Assembly (NCBI RefSeq): GCF_049347105.1
Contig: NZ_CP186334.1
Span: 3,298,575 to 3,362,574, forward strand
DNA from: Gaoshiqia hydrogeniformans
GTDB taxonomy: Bacteria; Bacteroidota; Bacteroidia; Bacteroidales; Prolixibacteraceae
Reading direction: 5' to 3'
Length of the DNA: 64,000 nucleotides
Shown here: in pieces, positions 2,495-60,883 of the stretch
Layout: the number at the start of each line of letters is the position of its first letter
Numbering within the stretch: the stretch's first letter is position 1
Translations under genes and position numbers: made by a program
Notes under the pieces: generated by a model
What the model was told of the DNA's origin: nothing
Database searches by the model: none
What the model saw: the letters and a program-made list of their open reading frames with translations, nothing else

Positions 2495-2517
2495 ATAAAA
2501 AAGAAAAAAAGATAGTT

Positions 2518-3066: not shown

Positions 3067-3235
3067 TATAAAAAATAAATTAAAGGTTTTCCTAAAGGGG
3101 TATTTAGTGCCTGTTTTATGCAGTTGAGCTGAAGGCCTTTTAGGAGAATTCTTTTTTATAGATTCTAATTATCCATCAATCCGTTATAAACACGGAACTG
3201 TTGAATCTTTGTTTCTATATCAAAATGAATTTTGA

Positions 3236-4891: not shown

Positions 4892-5069
4892 ATCGAGAGC
4901 CTTTTCAACGATCAGGTAAATGATCACGAGGTGAGAACGAATCAATCAGGAACCATATTGGATATTTTATGTCAAATTCTAATAATACCGAGAGCCGGGG
5001 TTATTCTAAAAGCTCATTTTTCGATTGGAATGTATTTATAAATGATAAAATAACATTAAAGTCAGGATA

Positions 5070-6371: not shown

Positions 6372-6420
6372 TGTGGCGCTTTGCATAAGGGGAAATGAAA
6401 TAGGACAACAATTTTAAACT

Positions 6421-16308: not shown

Positions 16309-17442
16309 TTATCCTGCTGCCGGAACAACAAGTGAAATATTAACTGTAGTTGTAGCTCCCGAAGTGACAACAACGCCGGTTTGCTCAAAGGCGGTGTAAC
16401 CTGTTGCCTGAACCCTGACAATATAGGTTCCGGGCGCGAGTCCGCTGATGGAATAACTTCCGTTTTCGCCGCTAACAGCGGTTGCAATGGCAGCGGGTAC
16501 TTCTTCTCCTTCGGCCGGTGTCGGATGAACGGCAACCGTGATGGCTTGCAGTAAAGTTTCACCGGTGCTTACAACTCCGGCGATAGTTCCCGGTGTTACA
16601 AAAGCGATATCTACGGTCGTTCCTGCGCCGACGGCCACAGTAGCACTTGCTTCAAATTTATCGAATCCTTCGATTTCACAACTGACGGTGTAAGTTCCTG
16701 CCGGTAAGCCCATCACTTTATAGTAACCGTTCTCGCCGGTTTTGGCCGAAAGGGTATCTCCGTTGTGGATAATGTCAACAATAGTGTCGACCAGGGCTTC
16801 ACCGTTGGCAGTCACGGTACCTTCAATCCAACCGGTATTGTCGATAACCGAAGCGCGGATGACCGGTTTAAAATTGAATCCTTTAATTCCGGCCGGAGTG
16901 GCAGCATTTCCCTGCATCACGAATGAACGGCTCACATCAAAATCGACCAGTACGGTTGCAAAACCACCGAATGTAACATTCAGGTCGCCTTCGATTTTAA
17001 TTTTTAAGCCGCTGCTCGATCCGCTGGGAATTTTTAAATCCATCAGAGTACCATCGGTCAGTTTTATATTGGCGCTGACGACATGTAACCGGACTTCATT
17101 ATAACTTCCGGATTCAAGTTCAATCTCTCCTAATTCTGCTGTAACACCGTTTTGCAGGTCAAGCAGGTTAAATGTTGTTTCTCCTTCAAGGTCGAACCCG
17201 ATAAAATCAGATGAGTTTACGTCTTCCTCTTCTTCGTCACCTGCTGATTTGCGGACCTCAACCCGGTCAATGGTCACATTGGCTTCTTCTACCCATTCAA
17301 ATGGGAACGGGGCGTCAGTCAGCAAAAAGCGAACGGTTCCTTTACCTTCTTTGTTAATTGACTCGTCTGTGTTACAAGCGGTAAAAACCACAGCCAGTAA
17401 GGCAATAATCAGGGCCGACATTGTTTTCATTCTTTCTTTCAT
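16309..17442 (-). CDS. DUF4382-like lipoprotein with carboxypeptidase-regulatory-like beta-sandwich repeats
   Basis: Lipoprotein signal (AVVFTAC). Repeated Gly/Thr-rich beta-sandwich segments (GTYTVSCEIEGF, GTYIVRVQATGY). Confidence 0.6.
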   Translation of the reverse strand: MKERMKTMSALIIALLAVVFTACNTDESINKEGKGTVRFLLTDAPFPFEWVEEANVTIDRVEVRKSAGDEEEEDVNSSDFIGFDLEGETTFNLLDLQNGVTAELGEIELESGSYNEVRLHVVSANIKLTDGTLMDLKIPSGSSSGLKIKIEGDLNVTFGGFATVLVDFDVSRSFVMQGNAATPAGIKGFNFKPVIRASVIDNTGWIEGTVTANGEALVDTIVDIIHNGDTLSAKTGENGYYKVMGLPAGTYTVSCEIEGFDKFEASATVAVGAGTTVDIAFVTPGTIAGVVSTGETLLQAITVAVHPTPAEGEEVPAAIATAVSGENGSYSISGLAPGTYIVRVQATGYTAFEQTGVVVTSGATTTVNISLVVPAAG

Positions 17443-17448
17443 AACTCG

Positions 17449-18327
17449 TTACTTTTTTTCGTTAACAATAATTACTTCGTTTGTTTGAAAGGAGTATTCG
17501 AGATTGAGGGAACGACACAGGATTTTGATGGCTGTTTCAGCGCTGGTAGTTTCCAGTTTTCCTGAAAAATGTTTTTGCACTGACTGGTTCAGCAAAATCC
17601 TGACTTGAAAAAAGTTTTCCAGGTCGGCAACAACATTCGAAAGCGTTTCATTTGAAAAGGTCTTTCTAAACGTCGCTGTTCCCGGATACATTTCGTCGGT
17701 ATGAACCATTGATGTTTGTCCGTCGGGTTGATAGATCATTGAATTCCCGGCCGAAATTTCCTGTGCCAGGTTTTTCGTGGTAAACATTACCTTCCCTTCA
17801 AAACAAGTTACCTTTAGTCCATTACTTGTATCCGAAACCTGAAATCTCGTTCCCAAAACGCGAACATCTCCCTTCGGTGTTCTGACAATGAACTTATCCC
17901 CTTTTTTTACCTCGAAGTAAGCTTCCCCTTGTAGCTTGATCTCTCTTTTCCACCAGTATCTTGGGTAACTGACGGCGCTGTTTTCGCTTAAAACAACGCG
18001 GGAGTGATCAGGAAGCCTGATTGCGTTAACTTGTTGAATATTTCCCTCAAATACCTTTAACGAGAAGAAAAAATGAAGAAGGAAAACCAGGACCAGAGAA
18101 GCAGCGGTTGAAATTGCGATTCGATAAACAGGACTTAGTAATATTGCTTTTGTACTGACCTGATTTTGTCGCCCTTCTTCAATTTTCTTTAATATTTTTT
18201 GCAGCACAATATTTTTATCTGTCTTCCCCGGAACTAAATAAGATCTGACTACCTGATCAATCGGACTTTCATTTTGTGTGATTACAGGTAATTCCGGATG
18301 TAGACATATATTGTTGCTGTTTAACAC
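17449..18327 (-). CDS. FecR-family anti-sigma factor / signal transducer (second copy in this locus)
   Basis: Single TM helix and a FecR domain (LPDHSRVVLSENSAV...GEAYFEV...GTRFQV). It is a paralog of the FecR at 20964..21800. Confidence 0.7.
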   Translation of the reverse strand: MLNSNNICLHPELPVITQNESPIDQVVRSYLVPGKTDKNIVLQKILKKIEEGRQNQVSTKAILLSPVYRIAISTAASLVLVFLLHFFFSLKVFEGNIQQVNAIRLPDHSRVVLSENSAVSYPRYWWKREIKLQGEAYFEVKKGDKFIVRTPKGDVRVLGTRFQVSDTSNGLKVTCFEGKVMFTTKNLAQEISAGNSMIYQPDGQTSMVHTDEMYPGTATFRKTFSNETLSNVVADLENFFQVRILLNQSVQKHFSGKLETTSAETAIKILCRSLNLEYSFQTNEVIIVNEKK

Positions 18328-18421
18328 GTTTTTAATTTGTTTACAGCATTAATATCCTTTCATCCGGAAATACCCTACCGGAAAAATCAATTTTTTTTAA
18401 ATAAAAATGTAAGTTGCTTGT

Positions 18422-20977
18422 TTACAGGCTCCTGATGTTGATGAAAAATACCGGGGTGAATTTAACGGAGGTGATATCGGTGCGGATCGAATAAGAACCG
18501 GTACTGTCGGAGATCTTAAAATAATCGACCATCAGGACGTTCTCGCGATTAAACAAGTTTAAGATAGAAAAACCGGAACTCAGGCTGAAATATTTCAACG
18601 AAAACCTTTTTATAACCGAAAGGTCTGTTTGAGCGAAATAGGGGAGCCGCCCAAACGACTGGCTGTCTGTTTCGGTAATTAAATACGGGCTGCCCGAGTG
18701 GTAGTTCAGGCTCGCGGAAAATACCCAGCTTTTATATTTCGCCATTTCAGTCCACCGGAGTTTGAGCCGTTGATCGTCAAAAGGGGGATAACTTTCGCCG
18801 TTATTGAAGACTTCAAACTGTTCCGTCGATTTGGATAATGAGGCGGATAGCATGTGGGTGAAATTACCTTTTTGATAATGAATAAGCGCGTCGAGGCCGT
18901 AAGACTCTGTTTGGCCCGGGTGCGTCACATATTCGATGAATTTTTCTTTTCCGCCGCTGACTTCAGCATAAAGGTTAATTTTCCCGCTTGTTTTTTTGTA
19001 ATAAGATTCCACATTCAGGCTAAGGCCGTTTTTTTCGTAACCGGCTCCAATCACATGCTGGCGGGCCTTCATGATGCCGTTGCCGGTAGTATCGGGTAAA
19101 AACCAAACCAGTTCACTTGTTCCCTGACTGTCGATTTTCCTGATCTGTGATAAAAACTGGTTGTAGGTTCCCCCGGAATAAAACAGGTTCAGGTCGTCGG
19201 TGGGTTTATAGCTGATCCCGTAACGCGGCTGGAGATAGAGTTTATCGGTGATGTCGGCTTTGTTGACCCGCAGACCGGCGCGTAACTGAACTTTTTCTGC
19301 CGGTTGAATGCTCTCCTGGAAATAGGCGTGCAGAATGGTCGCTTTTGAGTCGTAGTTGATCGAATCGACCGGAATATTGCCAACAGAACGCTCCGCCCGG
19401 TACAGGTAACTGACTTGGTTGGTTCTGGCCCCGAAGCCGAGTTGGTGTGTAAAACGGCCGGTTTTAAACTCCGATGACAGGCTGGCCATTAATTCTTCCA
19501 GCTGATTGTCGTCTTGGTCCAGTTCTGTTTTTCCTCCGTGTCCCTGGCTGTTTGGTAACATGCCGGCATTGCGGAGCGAAGAACGGTCCAGTTCATTATA
19601 CCCGAAGTTGAGGTGATGTTGCCAGTGGCTCCCGGCCTGATACCGCCAGTTCCCGCTGAAGCCCCGGTTTTTGCTGTCCATTTCCTGATTCCGGTAAAAA
19701 CGGGATCCTTCATTGAACAGGTAATCCTGTGTTTGCTGGTCATTACTGGTTAATACATTGAAGGAGATTTCCTGTTTTTCGGTTGGTTTCAGACTGATTT
19801 TGAGGTTCAGGTCGTCAAAATAAACAACCGGTTTCATAGTTGATTCTTCGTCTGTGGTAATTTCCTGTTCGAGGATTTGTTTGTATAAATAGTTTTCCCA
19901 AACGTCGATATACGATTTCCGGAAAGCGCCGCTGAGAGAAACGGTTTTCCCGACCGGGATATTGGCGGTGGCATTTACATTGAGCAAATTGGCCGAAAGG
20001 TCGAAGGCTGGTTTATAGTAACTGTTTTTTCCCGACAGTTCAATAATACCCGAAGTCCGTTCGCCCAGGGTGGCATCGAATGCGCCGCGCGAGACGAAAG
20101 CCTGTGAAATGTATTTGGCGTTCAGAACACTCATGCTGCCAAATAAATGGCTGGTTTCCAAAACCGGGATGCCGTCAAGCAAAATCAGGTTTTCAGAAGG
20201 CGATCCGCCGCGAATGGAAATGCCTTGGGTTTGACCGCCCAAAAAATTAACCCCGGGGATGAGACTTAGCGCGGTTACCAGGTCGCCGTCGTCGAGCCGG
20301 GGCATATTGGCGGCTTGTTTTGGGTTGAAGGCTATTTTTTCCGAGTGGTCACGCATTTCCAATACATCTTTTTCCTGTTGGTACACATTGATCGCCTCGA
20401 TGTGAAAAGCGAAAGGCGTCAATGCTATCCGGTGAAATTTTCCGGGTACCAGGCGAAGCATCGTATCCAGCCGCTGGTAACCCAGATGGCCGATTTCTAC
20501 GGCCAACTGATCCGTCTTTTCAATTTTTTCACCAAAAATACCTAATTCGTTGGTGATGGTCCCTTTGCTTGCACCAAAACCGATGTTGCAAAACAAGAGT
20601 GGTTCTCCGGTATGCTTGTCGATGACCAATCCTTCCATTCGGATAAATTCAGGAATTTTTTCGGCGACGGGAGTCGGGTTCTTATAAATGACCCAGGTAT
20701 TTTCAATCTTTTCGTAAAGGAGATGATGCTTTTTGCACAGCTCATCCAGGAACCGGCTTACCGGAATCCCTTCGTAATTCAGTTCCGGTTCAATTTCGGC
20801 GAAGTAGTCGGCATCAAAGGCAAATTGCAATTGGTATACTGCAGCCAGATTTTCCAATACCTGCCCCAGTTTTTTTCCTTTGGATTGAACCGATATTAAC
20901 TTTTCCTGACCAACTGCAAGTATTGAAATGCTTAGGAAAAACAGGAGGATAAAAATATGTGGCTTAATTCCTTTCAA
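18422..20977 (-). CDS. TonB-dependent outer membrane receptor of the transducer type, with an N-terminal signalling extension
   Basis: Signal peptide, an N-terminal STN-like extension, a plug domain (DGIPV...) and an 851-aa beta-barrel. No SusD partner, so it is not a SusC. Flanked by FecR genes. Confidence 0.85.
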   Translation of the reverse strand: MKGIKPHIFILLFFLSISILAVGQEKLISVQSKGKKLGQVLENLAAVYQLQFAFDADYFAEIEPELNYEGIPVSRFLDELCKKHHLLYEKIENTWVIYKNPTPVAEKIPEFIRMEGLVIDKHTGEPLLFCNIGFGASKGTITNELGIFGEKIEKTDQLAVEIGHLGYQRLDTMLRLVPGKFHRIALTPFAFHIEAINVYQQEKDVLEMRDHSEKIAFNPKQAANMPRLDDGDLVTALSLIPGVNFLGGQTQGISIRGGSPSENLILLDGIPVLETSHLFGSMSVLNAKYISQAFVSRGAFDATLGERTSGIIELSGKNSYYKPAFDLSANLLNVNATANIPVGKTVSLSGAFRKSYIDVWENYLYKQILEQEITTDEESTMKPVVYFDDLNLKISLKPTEKQEISFNVLTSNDQQTQDYLFNEGSRFYRNQEMDSKNRGFSGNWRYQAGSHWQHHLNFGYNELDRSSLRNAGMLPNSQGHGGKTELDQDDNQLEELMASLSSEFKTGRFTHQLGFGARTNQVSYLYRAERSVGNIPVDSINYDSKATILHAYFQESIQPAEKVQLRAGLRVNKADITDKLYLQPRYGISYKPTDDLNLFYSGGTYNQFLSQIRKIDSQGTSELVWFLPDTTGNGIMKARQHVIGAGYEKNGLSLNVESYYKKTSGKINLYAEVSGGKEKFIEYVTHPGQTESYGLDALIHYQKGNFTHMLSASLSKSTEQFEVFNNGESYPPFDDQRLKLRWTEMAKYKSWVFSASLNYHSGSPYLITETDSQSFGRLPYFAQTDLSVIKRFSLKYFSLSSGFSILNLFNRENVLMVDYFKISDSTGSYSIRTDITSVKFTPVFFINIRSL

Positions 20978-21800
20978 TTAACTGCAGTTTATTGTTTTCA
21001 ATCAGGTAGTTGAAATTCATAGCACGTGACAGGATCTGAAGAGAGACGCCGCTTTGCGCTAAATTCAGCCGGCCGGTAAAACGCTGTTCGAGCATGCTGT
21101 CGGATGCCGCCAGCGTATAACCTTCGCGTTGACAGATCAGCAGCAGGATCTCTTTTAACGGGCGGCTATGCCAGTAATAAGTCCCCTCCGGTAAATCTGA
21201 CAATACCTCCGGACTGATTTCAAAGGGGCCATCAGCCTTTTCAGTGTCAAAAGTAACGGCCTGCCCTTTTTTTAGAATAATTTCCTGTTGATGCAAACTC
21301 ACTTTTACGGAACCTTCGTAACAATCAACCCTGCCCGATTCCGGCGAATAGGCCTGAATGTTGAACGCTGTACCCAACACCTCCAGGTCTCCCCCAGGGA
21401 AACTGACACGGAAGGTTTTTCCTTTTTTTACTTCGAAAAATGCTTCACCCTTCATTCCGATGACCCGTTCGCCGTTTCGCTTCCGGTAGCTGTATGTCAA
21501 TTCGCTTCGGGTTTTTAAGGTTACCCGGCTGCTGTCGGGAAGCCAGACCAACTGACTGGGAGCAAGGTCGTTTTTTGCGAAACCGGGCTGCTCTGCCTCG
21601 CGGAACAAGGTAAAATATAACAGGACGACAGCTGCCGCAGCAACCGATGACCAGCCAATCATCCTGATCTTTGTATGCTTTGGCGCTTTATGCTCAGCTA
21701 TTTTTTTTGACAGCAGATTCCAGGCTTCCTCCTTGCTCCTGGTTTCAGGTACACGGTAGCCCTTCAGCTGTTGTTCGATATCGAATTTATTTGAGTGCAT
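20964..21800 (-). CDS. FecR-family anti-sigma factor
   Basis: TM helix plus FecR domain (LPDSSRVTLKTRSELTY...GEAFFEVKKGKTFRV...LGTAFNI). Overlaps the receptor gene start by 14 nt. Confidence 0.8.
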   Translation of the reverse strand: MHSNKFDIEQQLKGYRVPETRSKEEAWNLLSKKIAEHKAPKHTKIRMIGWSSVAAAAVVLLYFTLFREAEQPGFAKNDLAPSQLVWLPDSSRVTLKTRSELTYSYRKRNGERVIGMKGEAFFEVKKGKTFRVSFPGGDLEVLGTAFNIQAYSPESGRVDCYEGSVKVSLHQQEIILKKGQAVTFDTEKADGPFEISPEVLSDLPEGTYYWHSRPLKEILLLICQREGYTLAASDSMLEQRFTGRLNLAQSGVSLQILSRAMNFNYLIENNKLQLIERN

Positions 21801-21806
21801 ATACCT

Positions 21807-22313
21807 TTATATTTTACGCTCTACTGTTTCTTTCAATATACTCAGGGCCTTGTGCATATGTTTCTCTACGGCTTTGTTACTGATCTTCAAATCCCGCGCA
21901 ATATCCGAATACGTTAACTGATCAATACGGCTCATTAAAAAAATGGCGCGGGTTTTATCCGGGATTTTTGCGATGGCTTGCTGCAGTTTTTGATCAAATT
22001 CCTTTAACTCCATGATAAAATCAGGCGACTCGTTTTCTTGTCCCAGTACCAGGGAACTGGTAAAGTTTAAACTAATTGTCTTTCGCCGGTGGTGTTTAAA
22101 GTATTGATTTTTTGCCAGCGTGTATAACCAGGCCCTTACCGTATCTTGTCTGATTTTTGTATGTTCTTCCCAGAACGTCAGAAACACATCTTGTGTCAGG
22201 TCTTCTGCCAAATCAATATCTCCCGAAAGATAATAGATGTAGTTTCTGATATGTGTGTAATGATCATCAAATATTTTGCGAAACCAGACGGTATTGTTTT
22301 GCCTGTTTATCAT
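21807..22313 (-). CDS. RNA polymerase ECF-type sigma-70 factor
   Basis: 168 aa with sigma-70 region 2 and region 4. Forms an operon with the downstream FecR. Confidence 0.85.
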   Translation of the reverse strand: MINRQNNTVWFRKIFDDHYTHIRNYIYYLSGDIDLAEDLTQDVFLTFWEEHTKIRQDTVRAWLYTLAKNQYFKHHRRKTISLNFTSSLVLGQENESPDFIMELKEFDQKLQQAIAKIPDKTRAIFLMSRIDQLTYSDIARDLKISNKAVEKHMHKALSILKETVERKI

Positions 22314-22638: not shown

Positions 22639-22659
22639 CCCGGATTTCCCGGGTTTTTT
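22639..22659 (+). terminator. plus-strand terminator-like hairpin inside the divergent intergenic region
   Basis: CCCGG-ATTTC-CCGGG stem-loop followed by TTTTTT. There is no upstream plus-strand CDS; it lies about 145 bp upstream of the giant gene. Confidence 0.35.
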
Positions 22660-22685
22660 ATCAAGTTGAAATTGCGATTGATATT

Positions 22686-22802: not shown

Positions 22803-25800
22803 ATGGAAAAACTTTACCTGTGTTTTCGAACATTTCGATTCTTTCAAAAATTCCGTTTGGTATTTTTGATTGTGTTGGGCGGACTCCTGTTCAGTTCCGC
22901 TACAAGCTATGCGCAGTATAACCAGGCAGCTGTGGCTCTCGACCAGTTGCGTAATGGTTCTGCAACCAATCCTCTTCCCGACCCGAGCTGGGTAAATGGT
23001 AACCTGGGCGCTCAAAATTCTCATTATGCCGAGGGTATGTCGGTCGCATACCGTGCCGTAATGATTAAGATGCCTGTTGGCGTGGACGTTCAACTGACGT
23101 TGGAATATGATGCCAAACACAGTGGTAAACATGCCCTGGATTACCTGACACATTTCCAACGGATGGAAGACCACAGTATGTATGGTCACGATGCCGAAAT
23201 AGTTGACCCCACAAAGGGAACAGCCTTTGACGGGCAATTGATGAGTCCGACCAGTACCTGGGCGATTCCTGCTCCTCCGGGATATAACTCCGAGGTTGCC
23301 GGCATGCCGGCATCCAGCCATGCAGCTCTTCCCGGCAGCGAAATCTTGATGGCCATGTGGGGTGGTACCATTTCCGGTATTACGTATACCGACGAAAACG
23401 GTGTCGCCCATGCCGCAGATTTGGCGGTGGCTCAGTCAGCACAGAAAATTACCGTTAATTTTACAGCCGAAGCAGCCTCAGTCGTACTTGCCTGGGGCGG
23501 ACACATCGGCAGCCGGTTGGAGTGGGGATATTTCCCTGACGGAACCCCCAGGTCGGCCGGTGGAATCAGCGGTTCTCCCTATCATATGCGTATCATCGAC
23601 TGGAACCTGAATAATCTGGGAAACCAGGACCGGTCGCTTTCTGCTGACGCCGTTGCCATACCGCCTACCTGCGATGTTGTACCGGTTGATCAGTTTTGTG
23701 GCGGAAAAGTAATCACCTTCCAGGCCACTTCAGATGCCTCAAGTCCAACTTACGTATGGACTATTCTGAACAATACCTCGGGAGCTGCGTTTGTTGGCCC
23801 GACAAACGGGGCTGAAGTAACAGTGCTGTCTGAAAATCCGGGCGGATATACCCTGCACGTGGAAATTTCAGATGGACTTCTGTCGTCCGAATGTGAAACG
23901 GATGCATTGGTGAATGATGTGCCAATCTCGTTTACGCTTCCTGCTGATATTCATTTATGTCAGGATGAAGTTGGGGCAAGCCTGAGTGTGACCCTTGAAA
24001 ACATTGATGCAATCGTTGATTACCTTGCTGATCTTGAAATTAGTTTTTCGATAGATGCTGTTTTACAGCAAGATTATATAAAACTTCAAAATTATCTTGC
24101 CACCAACTTTCCGGCATTTAGCTGGAACGATTTTGTGGCGATTACCGGTGATGGAGACTTCCCGCTGATTGGCGATCTGATTGCTATGCTTGGCGGGTCG
24201 GGTAGCAAAACCATCTCCGTGTCGCTTCGTTTGCCAACAACCGGAATGACCACTGACGTTTGTGTTTTCACCGAGGAAACACAGGTTACCGTTAACGATA
24301 ACCCGCTATGCTCCATTGCCGGCGACGACTCTGTTTGCCCGGACGGGGAATTTACTTATACCTACGACGGAACGTCAGTGATAAGCACATATGCCTGGAG
24401 CGTATCAGGCGATGTAGCAATCATTGGAGGTGCTGATGGTCAATCAGTAACGGTAAAGGCTGACGCCGTTTGCGGAACATTTACCCTTTCATTGGTTGTT
24501 ACGGATGAAAACGGATGTGAAAGTAGCTGCGAAAAAATTGTAGCTATTCAAGATGAAGAGATACCGGTGATCTCAACCGAAGCAGTTGACGGATACGATT
24601 GGGGATGTAACCCCGATGAAATTCCTGTTCCTGAATTTACTGCAACAGATAATTGCGGTGACTTTACACCAAATGTAGCAACAGATGGTCCCGTTCAGGA
24701 TGCCGAAGGTTGCGGTATGAGTCAAACATGGACGGCTACTGTTGTTGATTATTGTGATAATGAGGCTGTTCCGGTAAGTATTACTTATTACTGGAAAGTC
24801 GACCTGGAAGCCCCGGTTATCACGGCCGCCAACGAAGATTCCGACTTAGGTTGTAACCCGACTGCAGAAGAAATCGAAGCAGCGCTTGGCGGCGCAACAG
24901 CTGCCGACAACTGCGATGCAGAAGTTACGGTTGAATATACCGACGGCGATGTGATGGGCGATGACTGCCTGAAGAGCCAGACCCGCACGTTCACCGCTGT
25001 TGACGAATGCGGCAACCAGGCCGAAGCCGTCACGGTTACGGTAAGCTGGAAAGTTGACCTGGAAGCCCCGGTGATCACAGCTGCGAACGAAGATTCCGAC
25101 TTAGGCTGTAACCCGACTGCAGAAGAAATCGAAGCAGCGCTTGGCGGCGCAACAGCTGCCGACAACTGCGATGCAGAAGTTACGGTTGAATATACCGACG
25201 GCGATGTGATGGGCGATGACTGCCTGAAGAGCCAGACCCGCACGTTCACCGCTGTTGACGAATGCGGCAACCAGGCCGAAGCCGTCACGGTTACGGTAAG
25301 CTGGAAAGTTGACCTGGAAGCCCCGGTGATCACAGCTGCGAACGAAGATTCCGACTTAGGCTGTAACCCGACTGCAGAAGAAATCGAAGCAGCGCTTGGC
25401 GGCGCAACAGCTGCCGACAACTGCGATGCAGAAGTTACGGTTGAATATACCGACGGCGATGTGATGGGCGATGACTGCCTGAAGAGCCAGACCCGCACGT
25501 TCACCGCTGTTGACGAATGCGGCAACCAGGCCGAAGCCGTCACGGTTACGGTAAGCTGGAAAGTCGATCTGGAAGCCCCGGTCATCACAGCTGCGAACGA
25601 AGATTCCGACTTAGGCTGTAACCCGACTGCAGAAGAAATCGAAGCAGCGCTTGGCGGCGCAACAGCTGCCGACAACTGCGATGCAGAAGTTACGGTTGAA
25701 TATACCGACGGCGATGTGATGGGCGATGACTGCCTGAAGAGCCAGACCCGCACCTTCACGGCTGTTGACGAATGCGGCAACCAGGCCGAAGCCGTCACCG

Positions 25801-28800
25801 TTACGGTAAGCTGGAAAGTTGATCTGGAAGCCCCGGTGATCACAGCTGCGAACGAAGATTCCGACTTAGGCTGTAACCCGACTGCGGAAGAAATCGAAGC
25901 AGCGCTTGGCGGCGCAACAGCTGCCGACAACTGCGATGCAGAAGTTACGGTTGAATATACCGACGGCGATGTAACAGGCGATGACTGCCTGAAGAGCCAG
26001 ACCCGCACCTTCACGGCTGTTGACGAATGCGGCAACCAGGCCGAAGCCGTCACGGTTACGGTAAGCTGGAAAGTCGATCTGGAAGCCCCGGTGATCACAG
26101 CCGCGAACGAAGATTCCGACTTAGGCTGTAACCCGACTGCGGAAGAAATCGAAGCAGCGCTTGGCGGCGCAACAGCTGCCGACAACTGCGATGCAGAAGT
26201 TACGGTTGAATATACCGACGGCGATGTAACAGGCGATGACTGCCTGAAGAGCCAGACCCGCACCTTCACGGCTGTTGACGAATGCGGCAACCAGGCCGAA
26301 GCCGTCACGGTTACGGTAAGCTGGAAAGTCGATCTGGAAGCCCCGGTGATCACAGCCGCGAACGAAGATTCCGACTTAGGCTGTAACCCGACTGCGGAAG
26401 AAATCGAAGCAGCGCTTGGCGGCGCAACAGCTGCCGACAACTGCGATGCAGAAGTTACGGTTGAATATACCGACGGCGATGTGATGGGCGATGATTGCCT
26501 GAAGAGCCAGACCCGCACCTTCACGGCTGTTGACGAATGCGGCAACCAGGCCGAAGCCGTCACCGTTACGGTAAGCTGGAAAGTCGATCTGGAAGCCCCG
26601 GTGATCACAGCCGCGAACGAAGATTCCGACTTAGGCTGTAACCCGACTGCAGAAGAAATCGAAGCAGCGCTTGGCGGCGCAACAGCTGCCGACAACTGCG
26701 ATGCAGAAGTTACGGTTGAATATACCGACGGCGATGTGATGGGCGATGATTGCCTGAAGAGCCAGACCCGCACGTTCACCGCTGTTGACGAATGCGGCAA
26801 CCAGGCCGAAGCCGTCACAGTTACGGTAAGCTGGAAAGTTGATCTGGAAGCACCGGTCATCACGGCCGCCAACGAAGATTCAGACCTGGGTTGTAACCCG
26901 ACTGCAGAAGAAATCGAAGCAGCGCTTGGCGGCGCAACAGCTGCCGACAACTGCGATGCAGAAGTTACGGTTGAATATACCGACGGCGATGTGATGGGCG
27001 ATGACTGCCTGAAGAGCCAGACCCGCACCTTCACGGCTGTTGACGAATGCGGCAACCAGGCCGAAGCCGTCACTGTTACGGTAAGCTGGAAAGTTGATCT
27101 GGAAGCACCGGTCATCACGGCCGCCAACGAAGATTCCGACTTAGGCTGTAACCCGACTGCAGAAGAAATCGAAGCAGCGCTTGGCGGCGCAACAGCTGCC
27201 GACAACTGCGATGCAGAAGTTACGGTTGAATATACCGACGGCGATGTGATGGGCGATGATTGCCTGAAGAGCCAGACCCGCACGTTCACCGCTGTTGACG
27301 AATGCGGCAACCAGGCCGAAGCCGTCACTGTTACGGTAAGCTGGAAAGTTGATCTGGAAGCCCCGGTTATCACAGCCGCGAACGAAGATTCCGACTTAGG
27401 CTGTAACCCGACTGCAGAAGAAATCGAAGCAGCGCTTGGCGGCGCAACAGCTGCCGACAACTGCGATGCAGAAGTTACGGTTGAATATACCGACGGCGAT
27501 GTAATGGGCGATGACTGCCTGAAGAGCCAGACCCGCACGTTCACCGCTGTTGACGAATGCGGCAACCAGGCCGAAGCCGTCACGGTTACGGTAAGCTGGA
27601 AAGTTGACCTGGAAGCCCCGGTGATCACAGCTGCGAACGAAGATTCAGACCTGGGTTGTAACCCGACTGCAGAAGAAATCGAAGCAGCGCTTGGCGGCGC
27701 AACAGCTGCCGACAACTGCGATGCAGAAGTTACGGTTGAATATACCGACGGCGATGTGATGGGCGATGACTGCCTGAAGAGCCAGACCCGCACCTTCACG
27801 GCTGTTGACGAATGCGGCAACCAGGCCGAAGCCGTCACGGTTACGGTAAGCTGGAAAGTTGATCTGGAAGCACCGGTCATCACAGCTGCGAACGAAGATT
27901 CAGACCTGGGTTGTAACCCGACTGCGGAAGAAATCGAAGCAGCGCTTGGCGGCGCAACAGCTGCCGACAACTGCGATGCAGAAGTTACGGTTGAATATAC
28001 CGACGGCGATGTAACAGGCGATGACTGCCTGAAGAGCCAGACCCGCACCTTCACGGCTGTTGACGAGTGCGGCAACCAGGCCGAAGCCGTCACTGTTACG
28101 GTAAGCTGGAAAGTTGATCTGGAAGCACCGGTCATCACGGCCGCCAACGAAGATTCCGACTTAGGCTGTAACCCGACTGCAGAAGAAATCGAAGCAGCGC
28201 TTGGCGGCGCAACAGCTGCCGACAACTGCGATGCAGAAGTTACGGTTGAATATACCGACGGCGATGTGATGGGCGATGATTGCCTGAAGAGCCAGACCCG
28301 CACGTTCACCGCTGTTGACGAGTGCGGCAACCAGGCCGAAGCAGTAACGGTTACGGTAAGCTGGAAAGTTGACCTGGAAGGACCTGTGATCGAATGTCCT
28401 GACGATATCTATGTTGCCGGATGCGAATTAGCGCCATTCATTGAATTGCCTATAGCAACAGACAACTGCGATGGAGCTGTGGAAGTTACCGCTTCCCGTT
28501 CAGATGGTTTGGAATTGAACGACCCGTTTGCAGAGGGTATAACCACCATCACGTTCACCGCAGTTGATGAATGTGGTAATAATTCAACTGAATGTGTGGT
28601 CAATGTAACCGTTGATCCATGTGAGCCGAACTGTGAAACTGCTTATGGTATGCTGGAAGGCGGTTCAGTTTGCTTCCTTAATGATGGATTCAATCGATGG
28701 GGCTGGACAAACTCAATTTCCGAAGAAGGGGAATATTCAATGCCTCTTTACGCCGGAGCAGCCCAATGTAATCCTGATAAGGGCGAACTGGTCGGTAGGG

Positions 28801-29429
28801 TTGAAGTCACTTATTCAGGAAGTACGCTGACGGTTCAGTACCTAACCGATCCGGGTTATTCGATGAGTGAGGTCCATTTGTACGTCGGATGTGATAAATA
28901 TCCGCTCGCGAAGAACGGAAAAGAAACCGTCGCTCCCGGACAATATACTCATAATGCAGGAAGTCTGAATAAGGTGAATAATTACACGGTTGAATTTACA
29001 AATGTGGAAGGACCTGTTTGGGTAATTGCCCACGCAGTAACCTGTGATGTAAATGGTGCCGGCATGGTCTCCGTTACGGAAATGGGGGTTGACTGTGGCG
29101 GGTTTGCATCGGAAGCAGAACAGCCTGTTGTAGAAGCCACCGAAGATTTATCCGGAAAAGATAATAAACCTGTAAAGATCAAAGCTTTCCCGACACCGTT
29201 CGACAAGAGTGTCAGATTTGAATTTGTACCAAACCAGGATGGTGAGGCACAGATTGGAATCTATAACTTACTCGGAAGTAAGGTTGGGGATGCCCTTAAC
29301 GAAATAGTTTACAAAGGAAGAACCTACTCTGTTGAATTTGACGGTTCCGGGTTACCCGCAGGCGTCTATTATTATCGATTCGTGTTAAATAACCAAACGC
29401 TTACAGGAAAAGTAATTAAAAATAAGTAA
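22803..29429 (+). CDS. giant secreted multi-repeat adhesin-like protein with a T9SS (Por) C-terminal sorting domain and 14 tandem HYR-like repeats
   Basis: 2208-aa ORF with an N-terminal signal peptide (LLFSSATSYAQ). Contains Cys-containing Ig/PKD-like modules and a central array of 85-aa repeats with HYR-type motifs (APVIT...GCNP...ATAADNCD...TFTAVDECGN). The C-terminus (...GVYYYRFVLNNQTLTGKVIKNK) matches the T9SS CTD pattern. A strong terminator follows. Confidence 0.9.
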   Translation: MEKLYLCFRTFRFFQKFRLVFLIVLGGLLFSSATSYAQYNQAAVALDQLRNGSATNPLPDPSWVNGNLGAQNSHYAEGMSVAYRAVMIKMPVGVDVQLTLEYDAKHSGKHALDYLTHFQRMEDHSMYGHDAEIVDPTKGTAFDGQLMSPTSTWAIPAPPGYNSEVAGMPASSHAALPGSEILMAMWGGTISGITYTDENGVAHAADLAVAQSAQKITVNFTAEAASVVLAWGGHIGSRLEWGYFPDGTPRSAGGISGSPYHMRIIDWNLNNLGNQDRSLSADAVAIPPTCDVVPVDQFCGGKVITFQATSDASSPTYVWTILNNTSGAAFVGPTNGAEVTVLSENPGGYTLHVEISDGLLSSECETDALVNDVPISFTLPADIHLCQDEVGASLSVTLENIDAIVDYLADLEISFSIDAVLQQDYIKLQNYLATNFPAFSWNDFVAITGDGDFPLIGDLIAMLGGSGSKTISVSLRLPTTGMTTDVCVFTEETQVTVNDNPLCSIAGDDSVCPDGEFTYTYDGTSVISTYAWSVSGDVAIIGGADGQSVTVKADAVCGTFTLSLVVTDENGCESSCEKIVAIQDEEIPVISTEAVDGYDWGCNPDEIPVPEFTATDNCGDFTPNVATDGPVQDAEGCGMSQTWTATVVDYCDNEAVPVSITYYWKVDLEAPVITAANEDSDLGCNPTAEEIEAALGGATAADNCDAEVTVEYTDGDVMGDDCLKSQTRTFTAVDECGNQAEAVTVTVSWKVDLEAPVITAANEDSDLGCNPTAEEIEAALGGATAADNCDAEVTVEYTDGDVMGDDCLKSQTRTFTAVDECGNQAEAVTVTVSWKVDLEAPVITAANEDSDLGCNPTAEEIEAALGGATAADNCDAEVTVEYTDGDVMGDDCLKSQTRTFTAVDECGNQAEAVTVTVSWKVDLEAPVITAANEDSDLGCNPTAEEIEAALGGATAADNCDAEVTVEYTDGDVMGDDCLKSQTRTFTAVDECGNQAEAVTVTVSWKVDLEAPVITAANEDSDLGCNPTAEEIEAALGGATAADNCDAEVTVEYTDGDVTGDDCLKSQTRTFTAVDECGNQAEAVTVTVSWKVDLEAPVITAANEDSDLGCNPTAEEIEAALGGATAADNCDAEVTVEYTDGDVTGDDCLKSQTRTFTAVDECGNQAEAVTVTVSWKVDLEAPVITAANEDSDLGCNPTAEEIEAALGGATAADNCDAEVTVEYTDGDVMGDDCLKSQTRTFTAVDECGNQAEAVTVTVSWKVDLEAPVITAANEDSDLGCNPTAEEIEAALGGATAADNCDAEVTVEYTDGDVMGDDCLKSQTRTFTAVDECGNQAEAVTVTVSWKVDLEAPVITAANEDSDLGCNPTAEEIEAALGGATAADNCDAEVTVEYTDGDVMGDDCLKSQTRTFTAVDECGNQAEAVTVTVSWKVDLEAPVITAANEDSDLGCNPTAEEIEAALGGATAADNCDAEVTVEYTDGDVMGDDCLKSQTRTFTAVDECGNQAEAVTVTVSWKVDLEAPVITAANEDSDLGCNPTAEEIEAALGGATAADNCDAEVTVEYTDGDVMGDDCLKSQTRTFTAVDECGNQAEAVTVTVSWKVDLEAPVITAANEDSDLGCNPTAEEIEAALGGATAADNCDAEVTVEYTDGDVMGDDCLKSQTRTFTAVDECGNQAEAVTVTVSWKVDLEAPVITAANEDSDLGCNPTAEEIEAALGGATAADNCDAEVTVEYTDGDVTGDDCLKSQTRTFTAVDECGNQAEAVTVTVSWKVDLEAPVITAANEDSDLGCNPTAEEIEAALGGATAADNCDAEVTVEYTDGDVMGDDCLKSQTRTFTAVDECGNQAEAVTVTVSWKVDLEGPVIECPDDIYVAGCELAPFIELPIATDNCDGAVEVTASRSDGLELNDPFAEGITTITFTAVDECGNNSTECVVNVTVDPCEPNCETAYGMLEGGSVCFLNDGFNRWGWTNSISEEGEYSMPLYAGAAQCNPDKGELVGRVEVTYSGSTLTVQYLTDPGYSMSEVHLYVGCDKYPLAKNGKETVAPGQYTHNAGSLNKVNNYTVEFTNVEGPVWVIAHAVTCDVNGAGMVSVTEMGVDCGGFASEAEQPVVEATEDLSGKDNKPVKIKAFPTPFDKSVRFEFVPNQDGEAQIGIYNLLGSKVGDALNEIVYKGRTYSVEFDGSGLPAGVYYYRFVLNNQTLTGKVIKNK
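24791..28360 (+). repeat. 14 tandem copies of a 255-bp (85-codon) near-identical in-frame repeat inside the giant gene
   Basis: The unit boundary CTGGAAAG recurs at 24791, 25046, 25301, and so on to 28361, exactly 255 nt apart. Copies differ at a few mostly synonymous sites plus one Met/Thr site. Copies 2 and 3 (25046..25555) are 100% identical. Confidence 0.95.
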
Positions 29430-38901: not shown

Positions 38902-40020
38902 ATGAAAACTATCCGATACATTCTTCAAAAAGAATTCATCCAGGTATTCCGAAACAAAACCATGTTACCCATGATCTTTGTGTTGCCGCTGGTGCAAATG
39001 CTGATCCTGGTGTTTGCAGCAACCTACGATTTGAAAAACGTGGATATTTATGTGGTTGACCAGGATCTGTCGGCAACTTCGCGCGAACTGACAGGCAAAT
39101 TTGAAGGTTCGCCGTTTTTTCGCTTGCACGACGCGTCGTTTGATCTGCAGGATGCCGAGAACAGTTTCAAAAAAGAAGAGGCGGATTTTGTGTTGGTGAT
39201 TCCGCAGGGTTTTGAACGTTCGTTGGTCCGTGAAGAAGAGGCTAGAGTGCAGCTGCTGATCAACGCGATTGATGGTAGTAAAGCCTCACTGATTTATTCC
39301 TACACCCTGGGGATCCTTTCGGGATTCAACAAGTCGGTGATTGCCGAATGGAAAGGTCTGCCCGAATTTAACCCACCCAGGCGAATCGAGGTGAAAGACA
39401 GCTATTGGTACAATCCCGAACTGGATTACAAGTGGTACATGGCGCCGGGCATCCTGGCTATTTTGGTAACGATTATCGGCATGTTTTTGTCGGGCATGAA
39501 CCTGGTGCGCGAAAAGGAAATCGGCACCATTGAGCAACTCAACGTGACTCCCATTAAAAAGTACCAGTTTATTTTGGGTAAGCTGGCGCCGTTCCTGGTC
39601 ATTGCTTTGTTCGACCTGGCTTTTGGGCTGATTATTGCCCGCGTGGTTTTCGACCTTCCCATCATGGGCAGCCTGCCTTTGCTGTTTGGTTTTGCTGCCC
39701 TTTACCTGGTTGGCGTACTTGGTCTGGGACTGTTTATTTCGACGGTTACCGAAACCCAGCAGCAAGTAATGTTTGTAACCTTCTTCTTTATGATGATTTT
39801 CATCCTGATGGGCGGCATATTCACCCCGGTCGAAAGTATGCCTCATTGGGCGCAATGGCTCGACCGTATCAACCCAATCTACTATTTTATGCGGATTATG
39901 CGCATGGTTGTGCTGAAAGGCTCCGGTTTTTCCGATTTATTGGATGAATTTGTTTCACTGACCGTGATTGGTGTCTCGTTCTTAAGTCTGGCCATCTGGC
40001 GCTACCGGAAAACGAGTTGA
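38902..40020 (+). CDS. ABC-2 family transporter permease
   Basis: Paralog of the preceding permease with the same topology; 372 aa. Confidence 0.85.
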   Translation: MKTIRYILQKEFIQVFRNKTMLPMIFVLPLVQMLILVFAATYDLKNVDIYVVDQDLSATSRELTGKFEGSPFFRLHDASFDLQDAENSFKKEEADFVLVIPQGFERSLVREEEARVQLLINAIDGSKASLIYSYTLGILSGFNKSVIAEWKGLPEFNPPRRIEVKDSYWYNPELDYKWYMAPGILAILVTIIGMFLSGMNLVREKEIGTIEQLNVTPIKKYQFILGKLAPFLVIALFDLAFGLIIARVVFDLPIMGSLPLLFGFAALYLVGVLGLGLFISTVTETQQQVMFVTFFFMMIFILMGGIFTPVESMPHWAQWLDRINPIYYFMRIMRMVVLKGSGFSDLLDEFVSLTVIGVSFLSLAIWRYRKTS

Positions 40021-40086
40021 CCGAAAGGTAAAAGCACCTTATTTTGGTGGTTTTCGTATATATTCCTGTTAAGAAGAAAGGAGGGA

Positions 40087-40452
40087 ATGATGATACCGGT
40101 TATTGAGGGAACGCAATTCGGGATGATTACGATCTCGGGCAGACAATATAATTATGATGTGCTGATCCGCCTGAACGGGCAGATTGAAAAACGGAAAAAG
40201 AAATTATCGAAGGAGAAATACGGAACCTCGCATAAAATTTCGTTGGAAGAAGCAGTTACTATTTATGAGCCAGGAGCAAAACAACTCATTATTGGTACTG
40301 GTCAGATTGGCTATGTAAAGCTTTCAGAAGAGGCAGCTTCGTTTTTTAAGCAAAAGAATTGTCAGGTACGACTGGTTGATACCCTGCAGGCGGTTCACGT
40401 ATGGAATGCCGCTGAAGGAAAAGTAATCGGAATGTTCCATGTTACCTGCTGA
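40087..40452 (+). CDS. small conserved hypothetical protein (possibly Mth938-like fold)
   Basis: 121-aa ORF with protein-like composition and no signal peptide. The family guess is weak. Confidence 0.45.
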   Translation: MMIPVIEGTQFGMITISGRQYNYDVLIRLNGQIEKRKKKLSKEKYGTSHKISLEEAVTIYEPGAKQLIIGTGQIGYVKLSEEAASFFKQKNCQVRLVDTLQAVHVWNAAEGKVIGMFHVTC

Positions 40453-40470
40453 CTATTTTTTACTTAAAAC

Positions 40471-41784
40471 CACTAGTGTCCCATTAAAATCGGGACGTAT
40501 TAATAATTAAACAAATTTGGCTCATTAAGGCTAAAACGTTCTTTGTCATTTTGAAATTTAGTTCTATCAAATAGGTCTCGAAGATTAGTTTTATCTGTTA
40601 AAGATATGCTCAATCTGCAAGACCTCATATGTGCTTCTATCAAGTTGCATGTCCTTTTGGACGATTGCCACCAAGCAGTAAGTGCACATGGCAGCGTAGA
40701 TTTGAATCCGAACAGCATTTTCAGTAGTACCCCAAAACTTTTTGATTTTCAGATGTTGCTTTAACCATTTGAAGAACAGCTCGACTTGCCAGCGGTTCTT
40801 GTAAAGTTCAGCAACCTGCAATGCAGAAATGTGCATTGCATTGGTCAAGAATACAAGCTCACGCTTTTGTTCTTCATCCCAATATCTGACCAATCTAAGA
40901 TGCTCTGGATAGTATTGCTTAGGATAAAACCCAGTCAATTCAATTGTTACATCTGAAAGCACGTTCTTGGGCAATCTTCGTTTCCATTTGATCATCTTGC
41001 ATTGTAGATTCTTTTTGGCTCTTAAAACATAGAAAGCTCCTATTTGATGAATCTTATACAACATCTTGAAGTGATTATATGCACGGTCAAATATGTAATA
41101 TGAGCCTGATTCATAAGGGATCTCTTTCATGGCAGTAGAGTCGTGAACAGATGCTTCAGTGATATGGAAAAATGCAGGTATCTGTGTCTCCACATCGTAT
41201 AATGCATGTACTTTGATTCCACCTTTTTTCTTACGGAACTTCGCCCACCAGAATACCGAAAGGCATAAGTCAATTGTCGTTGAATCAAAAGCATAGACAT
41301 TGCCTTCAAGCTTGAAGATGTCAGCAACGCGTTTCTGCCTGGCTTCGTTTACCAGATAGTAAGCATACTCTTCAAAGATGTGATAGTCCCTGTCTTGATT
41401 GGCTCTGGCCAGTGATGATTTTGAAATGTTCTTGCCCAATCCCAAATGATAAGATTTGGAGTGATGAGCATCAAGTGCGACGATCAAATCTCTAAGACTT
41501 TCACGATTTGACAATTGCCCGAACATCAGAGATAGCAATTGATTCCAACAAGTGAAATGCTTCACGTATTTGTCGCCATTGTATTTGGCAACAATACGAT
41601 TGAATTTGCTTCGATTCAGAAACGAGACCAGTTGAGCGAAAACGTATTTGTCTTGATACATATGCAATCAGAATAATCTGATGCAAAACTAAAAATTCAA
41701 GTCCGTTCGCTCGAAAAATGGATACAACTAACTAAATTTCAAATACATCAAAGAACTTTTTTAGTTTTTAATGGGACGGTAATG
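40471..41784 (-). mobile_element. IS4-family insertion sequence (1314 bp), apparently intact, flanked by 9-bp direct repeats
   Basis: A single DDE transposase ORF. Terminal inverted repeats begin CA...GTCCCATTAAAA (left 40471-40490; reverse complement at the right end 41765-41784). There is an additional subterminal inverted repeat of about 40 bp (40531-40568 versus 41721-41765). An identical 9-bp ACTTAAAAC sequence lies at 40462-40470 and 41785-41793. Confidence 0.75.
40591..41667 (-). CDS. IS4-family DDE transposase
   Basis: 358-aa ORF with IS4-type DDE-domain composition (…YAFDSTTIDL…, …DRAYNHF…) lying between the inverted repeats. Confidence 0.85.
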   Translation of the reverse strand: MHMYQDKYVFAQLVSFLNRSKFNRIVAKYNGDKYVKHFTCWNQLLSLMFGQLSNRESLRDLIVALDAHHSKSYHLGLGKNISKSSLARANQDRDYHIFEEYAYYLVNEARQKRVADIFKLEGNVYAFDSTTIDLCLSVFWWAKFRKKKGGIKVHALYDVETQIPAFFHITEASVHDSTAMKEIPYESGSYYIFDRAYNHFKMLYKIHQIGAFYVLRAKKNLQCKMIKWKRRLPKNVLSDVTIELTGFYPKQYYPEHLRLVRYWDEEQKRELVFLTNAMHISALQVAELYKNRWQVELFFKWLKQHLKIKKFWGTTENAVRIQIYAAMCTYCLVAIVQKDMQLDRSTYEVLQIEHIFNR

Positions 41785-41831
41785 ACTTAAAACATAGAAT
41801 TCAGTAAAACCATTTCATATTTTTTTGGCAT

Positions 41832-42482
41832 ATGCTCATCATTTTTTCTAATTTTAACCGGGAAGAATGTGATCAAGTTGCGCCGGAATTTCTTATATTT
41901 ATTTCAGTCTGTCAGTTATTTCCTATGAGCGTACCCGATGAGAAGATCTTGATAAACGCATTGAAGCAAAGTGACAAGAATGCATTTGATGCAATCTATT
42001 ACAGATGTCACAAAAAGCTTTTTGCTTTCTCATTGAAATTTCTGAAAGACCGGGACGAAACGGAAGATCTGATCCAGAAAGTGTTTACCATTTTGTGGGA
42101 ACGCCGGTTGCATCTGGATGAAAATAAGTCGGTTGAAGGCTATCTTTTTCGGATCGTGCGGAACGAGATTTACGATATTTTAAAACTTCGGGCCATCCGC
42201 GGGCATTACAGCGATTATGTGGTTAACAGCCAGGAGGCAGATTTAGATGAGCTGGAAAAAAAGAAGATAATTGAGCAGGTTTTTCAGTTGGTTGATCATT
42301 TGCCTGAGCGGCGCGCTCAAATTTTCCGGATGAGTAAAGAAGAAGGATTAACTTACAGGCAGATTGCCGAAATTCTGCAGATCTCCGAAAATACGGTGGA
42401 TACCCAGATCCGCCACAGCCTCGATTATTTAAGAAAAGAAATGCACAAACTCAGGCTGATCATCCTGAGCATTCTCCCCTGA
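41832..42482 (+). CDS. RNA polymerase ECF-type sigma-70 factor (PUL regulator)
   Basis: Sigma-70 regions 2 and 4. Followed by FecR and a SusC with an N-terminal extension. The likely true start is the Met at 41925. Confidence 0.85.
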   Translation: MLIIFSNFNREECDQVAPEFLIFISVCQLFPMSVPDEKILINALKQSDKNAFDAIYYRCHKKLFAFSLKFLKDRDETEDLIQKVFTILWERRLHLDENKSVEGYLFRIVRNEIYDILKLRAIRGHYSDYVVNSQEADLDELEKKKIIEQVFQLVDHLPERRAQIFRMSKEEGLTYRQIAEILQISENTVDTQIRHSLDYLRKEMHKLRLIILSILP

Positions 42483-42576
42483 ATTCTTATTTTCTTCAGA
42501 ACCTCAAAAAAATAACTTTCCCTTTCACGGAAAGAAACGCTTTTCAGGTATTCTTCATTGTAGAATCACGAATACC

Positions 42577-43686: not shown

Positions 43687-43818
43687 ACGAACTTAAAAAT
43701 AGCGCCTATGTAAAAACTAAGCCTAACTAAAAAGTAGGGACCAACGAATGCACCACCATTCCCCGGTCCCCGTGTGTAAATTAATTCCAGATAAAAATTA
43801 TTAACACGTATCAATTCT

Positions 43819-47193: not shown

Positions 47194-47217
47194 TGTAAAA
47201 TTCTAAATCCCAAGAAG

Positions 47218-48846: not shown

Positions 48847-48883
48847 TTGTCTGAATTACCAACTAACTGTAACCATGATAAAA

Positions 48884-48920
48884 AACCTGACAGGCCCCAA
48901 AAACCTGTCAGGTTTATTTC
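48884..48920 (+). terminator. rho-independent terminator after susD
   Basis: 11-bp stem AACCTGACAGG / CCTGTCAGGTT with a 9-nt loop, followed by TATTT. Confidence 0.6.
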
Positions 48921-48980
48921 AACGTAACCGGCGTCGGTGATGACGCTGGCTTTAAATAATTTTCAGAAAATTGAACAACG

Positions 48981-50840: not shown

Positions 50841-50850
50841 ATCAAATGTT

Positions 50851-53511: not shown

Positions 53512-53517
53512 CAGGAG

Positions 53518-54594: not shown

Positions 54595-54631
54595 GCAAAA
54601 ATTTTACGTGAACAACTAAACCAAACATACC

Positions 54632-55753: not shown

Positions 55754-55758
55754 AACAA

Positions 55759-58785: not shown

Positions 58786-58809
58786 TCAAATAAATTAAAA
58801 CCTGGGAAT

Positions 58810-60858: not shown

Positions 60859-60883
60859 ATTGAAAACTAAATAGTTAATAACC

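Follow-up and report, generated by a model that had tools for sequence, protein, structure and literature searches.

Within a 64,000-nt stretch of Gaoshiqia hydrogeniformans DNA (Bacteroidota, Prolixibacteraceae; NCBI RefSeq assembly GCF_049347105.1, contig NZ_CP186334.1, positions 3,298,575 to 3,362,574; hereafter the window), the product of the giant gene at 22803..29429 is probably (with a probability of roughly 0.7) a single-chain fibrillar protein of the cell surface that leaves the cell by the type IX secretion system (T9SS) and is tethered at its C-terminus; it would be a fibrillar adhesin of the Periscope Protein kind. This reading is built on the architecture of the protein, its family assignments, the signatures of selection and recombination among its repeats, and the distribution of the family of its N-terminal head, all of which were observed directly. 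The gene and its parts, in window positions, are as follows.

22803..29429, + strand: whole gene, 2208 aa counted from the ATG
22803..22913, + strand: putative Sec signal peptide, aa 1-37, read from the translation
22929..23666, + strand: conserved N-terminal head, aa ~43-288, ~250 aa, a multi-phylum family without a Pfam or NCBIfam model
23691..23906, + strand: PKD-like module, aa ~297-368, with a sub-threshold PF00801 match at aa 301-368 (19.7 bits, cut-off 23.5)
23910..24293, + strand: segment between the two PKD-like modules, aa ~370-497, no family match
24294..24539, + strand: PKD_6 (PF19408) module, aa 498-579, match at aa 503-579
24537..24791, + strand: upstream diverged HYR_4C-like unit, aa 579-663, four cysteines, the 15th HYR_4C stretch
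24792..28361, + strand: array of 14 in-frame 255-nt HYR_4C-type units, 85 aa each, aa 664-1853
28362..28616, + strand: downstream diverged unit, aa 1854-1938, PF02494 at 29.2 bits, beginning WKVDLE.PVI as in the array units
28635..29087, + strand: segment between the downstream diverged unit and the acidic linker
29088..29186, + strand: acidic linker, low confidence, aa ~2096-2128
29187..29426, + strand: T9SS type A C-terminal sorting domain, aa 2129-2208 (TIGR04183 / PF18962)
24788..28330, - strand: antisense 'shadow' open reading frame, 1180 aa, not considered a gene

The open reading frame (ORF) of 2208 aa begins with an ATG and was found at exactly the coordinates given in an initial annotation made from the sequence, which had located and described both the gene and its array accurately. 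The same protein is recorded by NCBI as WP_423126677.1 ('T9SS type A sorting domain-containing protein'), with 2190 aa and a TTG start at 22857. Relative to that start, the ATG at 22803 lengthens the protein by 18 residues, five of them basic, which give it a more typical signal-peptide n-region, and the NCBI start may be too short. Read by eye from the ATG, the translation displays n-, h- and c-regions, namely a basic n-region (K3, R9, R12, K16, R18) that is lost with the TTG start, a hydrophobic core LVFLIVLGGLLF, and a cleavage context of ...SYA before Q, with no lipobox. The signal peptide proposed in the initial annotation is plausible on this reading and is treated as putative. Homologs of the head begin aligning at about aa 43, and the mature chain has a mass of ~227 kDa, a pI of ~4 and 82 cysteines. 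The PKD-like modules that had been proposed are supported by the PKD_6 match (PF19408, aa 503-579; 35.8 bits for the N-terminal fragment and 32.5 for the full protein) together with the sub-threshold PF00801 match, and the segment of ~130 aa between them has no match in Pfam, NCBIfam or PDB sequences.

The array itself was reported by Tandem Repeats Finder as a single tract at 24791..28391 (period 255, 14.1 copies, 97% matches, 0% indels, score 6551), in which the 14 units run in frame from 24792 to 28361, and one 84-nt block is found in exactly 14 places 255 nt apart, against an expectation of 0 in shuffles. The flanking units, upstream and downstream, have the fold of the array module in diverged form, with 154 and 164 of their 255 nt departing from the array consensus. 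As first described, 85-aa HYR-like units follow one another head to tail 14 times, with a diverged copy at either end. Matching of one unit against Pfam, proposed as a check on the HYR-like character, gave a divided outcome. The character is supported by HYR_4C (PF23237, "HYR-like domain with 4 cysteines"), which scores 128.3 bits over 15 stretches of the whole protein (cut-off 27) and 23.0 bits (E 8.8e-5), below the cut-off, for one isolated unit, but the family expected, HYR proper (PF02494, cut-off 21.7), matches only aa 1856-1937 in the downstream diverged copy (24.6-29.2 bits), and a single array unit has no match to it at E<=1. Each array unit contains 4 cysteines, and 19 Asp+Glu against 3 Lys+Arg, for a net charge of about -16. 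The G+C content of the array is 57%, against ~45%, and the excess lies in the first and second codon positions, reflecting a composition rich in Ala, Gly, Asp, Glu, Thr and Val. GC-biased gene conversion and a foreign origin were considered for the GC-rich array and rejected, since the excess does not come from the third position (GC3 0.588, against 0.521 +/- 0.064 in other genes).

That the 14-copy array is an assembly artefact, with the number of units expanded or collapsed, is quite unlikely. The concern arises because 3.6 kb of 96% identical repeats cannot be spanned by short reads, and an independent short-read assembly (Logan, DRR398238) indeed starts at window position 28351, 10 nt before the end of the array, as would be expected of a real repeat beyond the resolution of short reads; obvious indel errors are also present in a related array, described below, from a metagenome-assembled genome (MAG). 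Against this, the reading frame is intact with no indels over 3570 nt, 13 of the 14 copies can be distinguished by sequence, the source record is a single 5.69-Mb contig, and the 22 variable columns are nearly all synonymous, a pattern specific to codon position that noise from sequencing or assembly cannot yield. The array is therefore real, with the exact unit count and the placement of variants on individual copies resting on the assembly. The antisense ORF, the second longest in the region, could be taken for a second gene overlapping the array, but this was rejected as wholly implausible. It arises because one unit happens to be stop-free in that frame, a property multiplied by the 14-fold repetition; its wobble positions are also those of the sense frame, 5 of its amino acid positions are altered by silent sense variants, compared with 1 in the sense frame, and every family match falls on the sense strand.

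The variation among the copies bears on how this uniformity is maintained. The initial annotation had considered the copies closer at the DNA level than the protein would require, implying recent expansion and/or ongoing concerted evolution. The reverse was found, with mean pairwise identities among the 14 copies of 96.4% for DNA and 99.6% for protein, and 20 of the 22 variable nucleotide columns at codon position 3. Only unit codon 55 is polymorphic at the amino acid level (Met, or Thr in copies 5, 6 and 13). At this site three substitutions fall within 4 nt (GTG ATG to GTA ACA, unit nt 162-165) in the same three copies, which suggests one multi-nucleotide event, later spread by conversion. 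By the Nei-Gojobori method, synonymous divergence among the copies (dS) is 0.163 and nonsynonymous divergence (dN) is 0.0028, giving a dN/dS of 0.017, with an upper 95% bound of ~0.06 by our own estimate, which treats ~25 substitution events as a Poisson sample. The copies are separated by at least 25 such events, of which only one is not synonymous, and the probability that at least 21 of 22 variable columns would be synonymous by chance is ~1e-12.

Exchange between the copies is also evident. Of 190 biallelic site pairs, 97 fail the four-gamete test, for which at least 7 events of recombination or conversion are needed, and the silent variants form a mosaic common to non-adjacent copies. Neighbouring copies are closer to each other than random pairs (7.15 versus 9.27 differences, p 0.004), and the longest perfectly identical tract per pair of units ranges from 86 to 255 nt. 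Over unit nt 76-161, 28 third positions in succession show no variation in any copy (p 0.002). Because silent changes have accumulated and been shuffled while amino acid changes have been removed, the array is not young. Selection at the protein level, not merely recent copying, keeps the modules identical, and the data point to strong purifying selection acting on an older array whose copies exchange sequence, and not to fresh expansion alone. The ongoing exchange implied by the initial annotation's concerted evolution is thereby supported in part, and the recent expansion is not supported.

A tentative and rather unlikely extension of this is that module uniformity is itself selected, with the units acting not as a passive spacer but as a homophilic 'zipper' through lateral, register-dependent self-association of fibres between cells or within a lattice at the surface. 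Divalent cations might then act as bridges, since each unit has a net charge of -16. The low dN/dS (0.017, bound ~0.06) would fit, considering that the fold tolerates divergence at 154-164 of 255 nt in the flanking units, as would the extreme acidity of the units and the weaker constraint on arrays of other lineages, where dN/dS is 0.11 and 0.32. However, those comparison arrays have only 2-3 copies, the estimate for the present array rests on only ~25 substitution events, and dN/dS values near 0.02-0.06 are normal for strongly constrained bacterial genes. Selection for uniformity would explain the very low dN/dS, but a low dN/dS does not require selection for uniformity.

The C-terminus supports assignment of the protein to T9SS. 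The type A sorting domain model TIGR04183 matches aa 2129-2207 of 2208 with 30.2 bits for the full protein and 33.4 bits for the fragment (cut-off 23), and PF18962 passes its cut-off of 27 on the C-terminal fragment only (28.2 bits, against 24.5 for the full protein). The C-terminal domain (CTD) resembles a solved T9SS CTD (chain 8glj_D, E 0.005), and PDB sequence searches with the N- and C-terminal parts of the protein returned matches to the CTD only. Type B sorting (the TIGR04131/CHU_C class) is not indicated, CHU_C (PF13585) scoring 16.1-17.9 bits, below its cut-off of 27. The giant protein is by these family matches a predicted T9SS type A cargo, in agreement with the sorting route initially annotated. 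Translocation by T9SS and removal of the CTD are established for type A cargo proteins. Together with the signal peptide and the 82 cysteines, the type A CTD suggests a route in which Sec would carry the protein across the inner membrane through the signal peptide (aa 1-37), the mature chain would fold in the periplasm, where its cysteines (4 per HYR unit) can form disulfides, and the CTD (aa 2129-2208) would be recognised by the T9SS translocon. The CTD would then be removed, as in characterised type A cargo, and the new C-terminus linked to the outer membrane surface or released.

At the opposite end of the chain, the head (aa ~43-288) has no Pfam, NCBIfam or PDB sequence match, and its fold is confidently predicted to be an elaborated β-sandwich. 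Hundreds of proteins have an N-terminal part 40-60% identical to it. A word-indexed search gave 734 matches, and an exhaustive search of 1.84 billion representatives gave 2128 clusters at E<=1e-3, 1360 of them at E<=1e-10, so that the family comprises at least 2128 clusters at 50% identity, a lower bound. Members are found in Bacteroidota, Zixibacteria, Planctomycetes, Eisenbacteria, Chloroflexi and Actinobacteria, and in these homologs the head is joined to varied stalks and anchors (HYR_4C, PKD, SprB, SdrD_B, CLIPPER/DUF11 and T9SS CTD), a combination that, judged from domain composition, has the grammar of an adhesive tip. A 50-member alignment of the head contains 31 invariant columns, including four His, two Glu, two Asp and three Ser (H37, H87, H197, H224, E40, E95, D76, D239, S43, S221 and S241, in the numbering of the translation of window 22914-23687). 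An isopeptide-bonded head, suggested by the CLIPPER and pilin neighbours, was rejected, the head alignment containing no conserved Lys. A Foldseek search with the head returned no significant match, and comparison with solved adhesins gave no close structural match. A further β-sandwich domain preceding the CTD likewise has a confidently predicted fold, with no counterpart in Pfam, NCBIfam or PDB.

The conserved residues of the head also lend themselves to a different account, in which the protein is released and not tethered, and serves as a soluble or matrix component whose head is an enzyme or metal-binding module and not an adhesin tip. Many Bacteroidota cargo proteins with a type A CTD are secreted enzymes. 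The 31 invariant columns with their His, Glu, Asp and Ser residues would suit such a head, as would its lack of a close structural match among solved adhesins. This account is nevertheless considered unlikely, because the heads of homologs are combined with cell-anchoring modules from several phyla, and because a long uniform stalk between head and sorting signal is a hallmark of fibrillar adhesins, as described by Monzon et al. 2021 (PMC8286594). A joint reading of head and stalk is doubtful as a whole but may be worth stating. In it, the head founds an undescribed, widespread domain family (at least 2128 clusters) whose conserved site, lined by His, Glu, Asp and Ser, would recognise or act on a ligand common in sediments and soils, and the identity of the stalk modules would be kept by selection for uniformity, through register-dependent association between fibres, and would not be a by-product of DNA homogenisation.

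Returning to the preferred reading of a tethered fibrillar adhesin, we infer from these results an adhesive, rod-shaped protein, its route of export, its tethering at the surface and a variable length. On this reading the mature protein would form a very acidic rod built from at least 19 β-sandwich modules, held by its C-terminal end, with the conserved ~250-aa head at the distal N-terminal tip as the likely ligand-binding part and the 14 uniform HYR_4C modules as a spacer fixing the distance to which the head projects. The unit length of 255 nt (3 x 85), together with the perfect identity over 86-255 nt per pair of units, makes an in-frame change in unit number possible, and recombination between units could add or remove whole modules, according to the Periscope Protein principle. 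Variability in copy number is a plausible expectation. The fibre or adhesin role proposed in the initial annotation fits this architecture, and the S-layer-like role proposed alongside it is supported by none of the results.

Four points weigh against the preferred reading. First, the placement of the silent variants depends on the assembly, and part of the mosaic could be a polishing artefact. Second, no ortholog or second strain was found among GTDB representative genomes, 5.8 billion proteins or JGI metagenome contigs, and no length variation was seen. Third, the 64-kb window contains no T9SS machinery genes, and their presence in the genome is assumed from the phylum. Fourth, no gene neighbourhood is conserved among the homologous loci compared (L001, L002 and L005-L007), so that none suggests partners.

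Relatives of the protein were sought with both the head and the repeat. A scan of GTDB genomes with the head gave only three loci, at 40-58% identity and none from Gaoshiqia; two of these (L001 and L002) end at contig ends ~0.4-0.6 kb past the head match, and several homologs in the head family are truncated at contig ends. A two-unit query in a word-indexed search of the 5.8 billion proteins returned a single relative, at 41% identity, and an exact 41-nt pattern from the unit was absent from JGI metagenome contigs. Other head-bearing proteins carry near-identical HYR_4C repeats of 79-80 aa, with adjacent-repeat identities of 100% (P0089), 97% (P0119), 92% (P0047 and P0027) and 91% (P0058). 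Of the initial expectation that this repeat organisation would be unlikely to have a characterised homolog, the absence of a characterised homolog stands, but the combination of head and near-identical HYR_4C repeats recurs in these five proteins of other lineages.

The DNA of three homologous array loci was examined. Arrays of 3 and 2 copies have the dN/dS values of 0.11 and 0.32 mentioned above, an informative but weak comparison. The third, a 7-copy array in a MAG, is disrupted by indels, and 9 of its 15 substitutions are still at the third position. The Gaoshiqia array is the longest and most constrained of those examined, a small sample. The 7-copy HYR_4C array (L005, 4276-5983; Saprospirales MAG, JADJYG010000026.1) has a poly-C insertion and single-base indels in copies 3-4 that divide it between two called genes, probably through an assembly error that truncates the annotated P0089.

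In the window the giant gene stands alone, between an EamA transporter gene on one side and, on the other, a minus-strand cluster (16309-22313) that runs divergent from it and comprises the following genes, including an extracytoplasmic function (ECF) sigma factor.

21807-22313, - strand: ECF sigma factor
20964-21800, - strand: FecR anti-sigma factor
18422-20977, - strand: TonB-dependent receptor
17449-18327, - strand: second FecR
16309-17442, - strand: DUF4382/CarboxypepD_reg protein

A divergent TonB-dependent receptor also lies upstream at L005, but not at four other homologous loci. The divergent ECF sigma / FecR / TonB-receptor cluster was considered as a feature of the head family and rejected as unsupported, the neighbourhood not being conserved. 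The divergent intergenic region of 489 nt contains a G+C hairpin (CCCGG-ATTTC-CCGGG) followed by a T run at 22639-22663 (+ strand), ~140 nt upstream of the giant ORF, which is terminator-like, yet has no plus-strand gene upstream. A leader RNA element upstream of the giant gene was not indicated, with no Rfam match and a fold z-score of only -1.6.

Elsewhere in the window, a polysaccharide-utilisation locus at 41832-61798 (+ strand) contains genes for an ECF sigma factor, FecR, SusC (with an STN domain), SusD, a PA14-metallophosphatase, a GH78 α-L-rhamnosidase, a GH2 enzyme and a phosphodiesterase/sulfatase-like enzyme, and a second, mannan-type set at 821-9005 contains SusD, GH5, GH130, MFS_2 and an epimerase-like protein. 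An IS4-type transposase gene (DDE_Tnp_1 + DUF4372; 40591-41667, - strand) lies between a DUF498 gene and the polysaccharide-utilisation locus, and G+C content in the window is lowest, at 38%, over 40001-42000.

The gene already carried a generic annotation and encodes a known kind of protein, which leaves it only modestly novel. Interest lies in the mosaic of silent sites and in two undescribed domain families, the head and the domain preceding the CTD, for both of which new family models could be built and ligands sought. The array provides a clean natural example of tandem near-identity at the protein level that is not simply recent DNA copying (dS 0.16, shuffled silent sites), and it bears on the question of why identical neighbouring domains, normally disfavoured through misfolding, are retained.

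Among known systems, the repeat unit is like HYR_4C (PF23237) in its four cysteines and in the 15 matching stretches, and like HYR (PF02494) in the downstream copy, and differs in that a single unit falls below the HYR_4C cut-off (23 versus 27 bits) and in that its exact sequence has one relative in the word-indexed search, at 41% identity. SprB and RemA of Flavobacterium johnsoniae are large, repetitive, T9SS-exported cell-surface adhesins of Bacteroidota, and SprB uses a type B CTD. A CTD of RemA is present in PDB 8gl6. The Gaoshiqia protein is likewise a large repetitive T9SS cargo of Bacteroidota, but unlike SprB it passes the type A model and reaches only 16-18 bits for type B/CHU_C (cut-off 27), and it contains no SprB repeat and no lectin domain. 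In Gram-positive pilins and adhesins, β-sandwich domains (CppA D1-D2, 5xcb; the AgI/II C-terminal domain; the PrgB Ig-like domain; CLIPPER, 9ifr) align with about half of the head at 8-17% identity, and unlike these the head contains no conserved Lys, making an isopeptide bond unlikely.

Also comparable are the fibrillar adhesin-like proteins of Bacteroidetes with a Por_Secre_tail anchor described by Monzon et al. 2021 (PMC8286594), which likewise combine tandem stalk domains with a candidate adhesive domain and, at the C-terminus, a T9SS anchor. PKD_6 (PF19408) is one of the stalk families built in that study, and the term 'HYR' is absent from its main text, its 82 stalk families being listed in the supplement. 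Unlike the proteins described there, the Gaoshiqia protein has a head outside the catalogued adhesive Pfam families, and since the head lacks a Pfam model, the published domain-based screen would not have called the protein.

A parallel in concept is with the Periscope Proteins (Whelan et al. 2021, PMC8201768; review PMC9704523), which include SasG, Rib, Sgo_0707, CdrA and inverse autotransporters, the concept and its Gram-negative examples being covered in these two papers. Their defining trait, variation in repeat number between close strains, was not observed for the Gaoshiqia protein. Its anchor is a T9SS type A CTD, in contrast to an LPXTG motif or β-barrel; its repeat is HYR_4C, and is not DNA-identical but carries silent mosaics (96.4% DNA versus 99.6% protein identity); and its organism is an environmental (sediment) anaerobe, in contrast to a host-associated pathogen. 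Like the Periscope Proteins, it is a single chain with identical tandem globular repeats placed between a cell-proximal anchor and a distal functional domain, and the DNA identity of the repeats is sufficient for intragenic homologous recombination. Long, highly identical globular tandem repeats, which characterise that group, are present here as 14 x 85 aa, in a protein whose CTD points to a surface location, and the gene would extend the Periscope and fibrillar-adhesin design to a T9SS-anchored protein of an environmental anaerobe.

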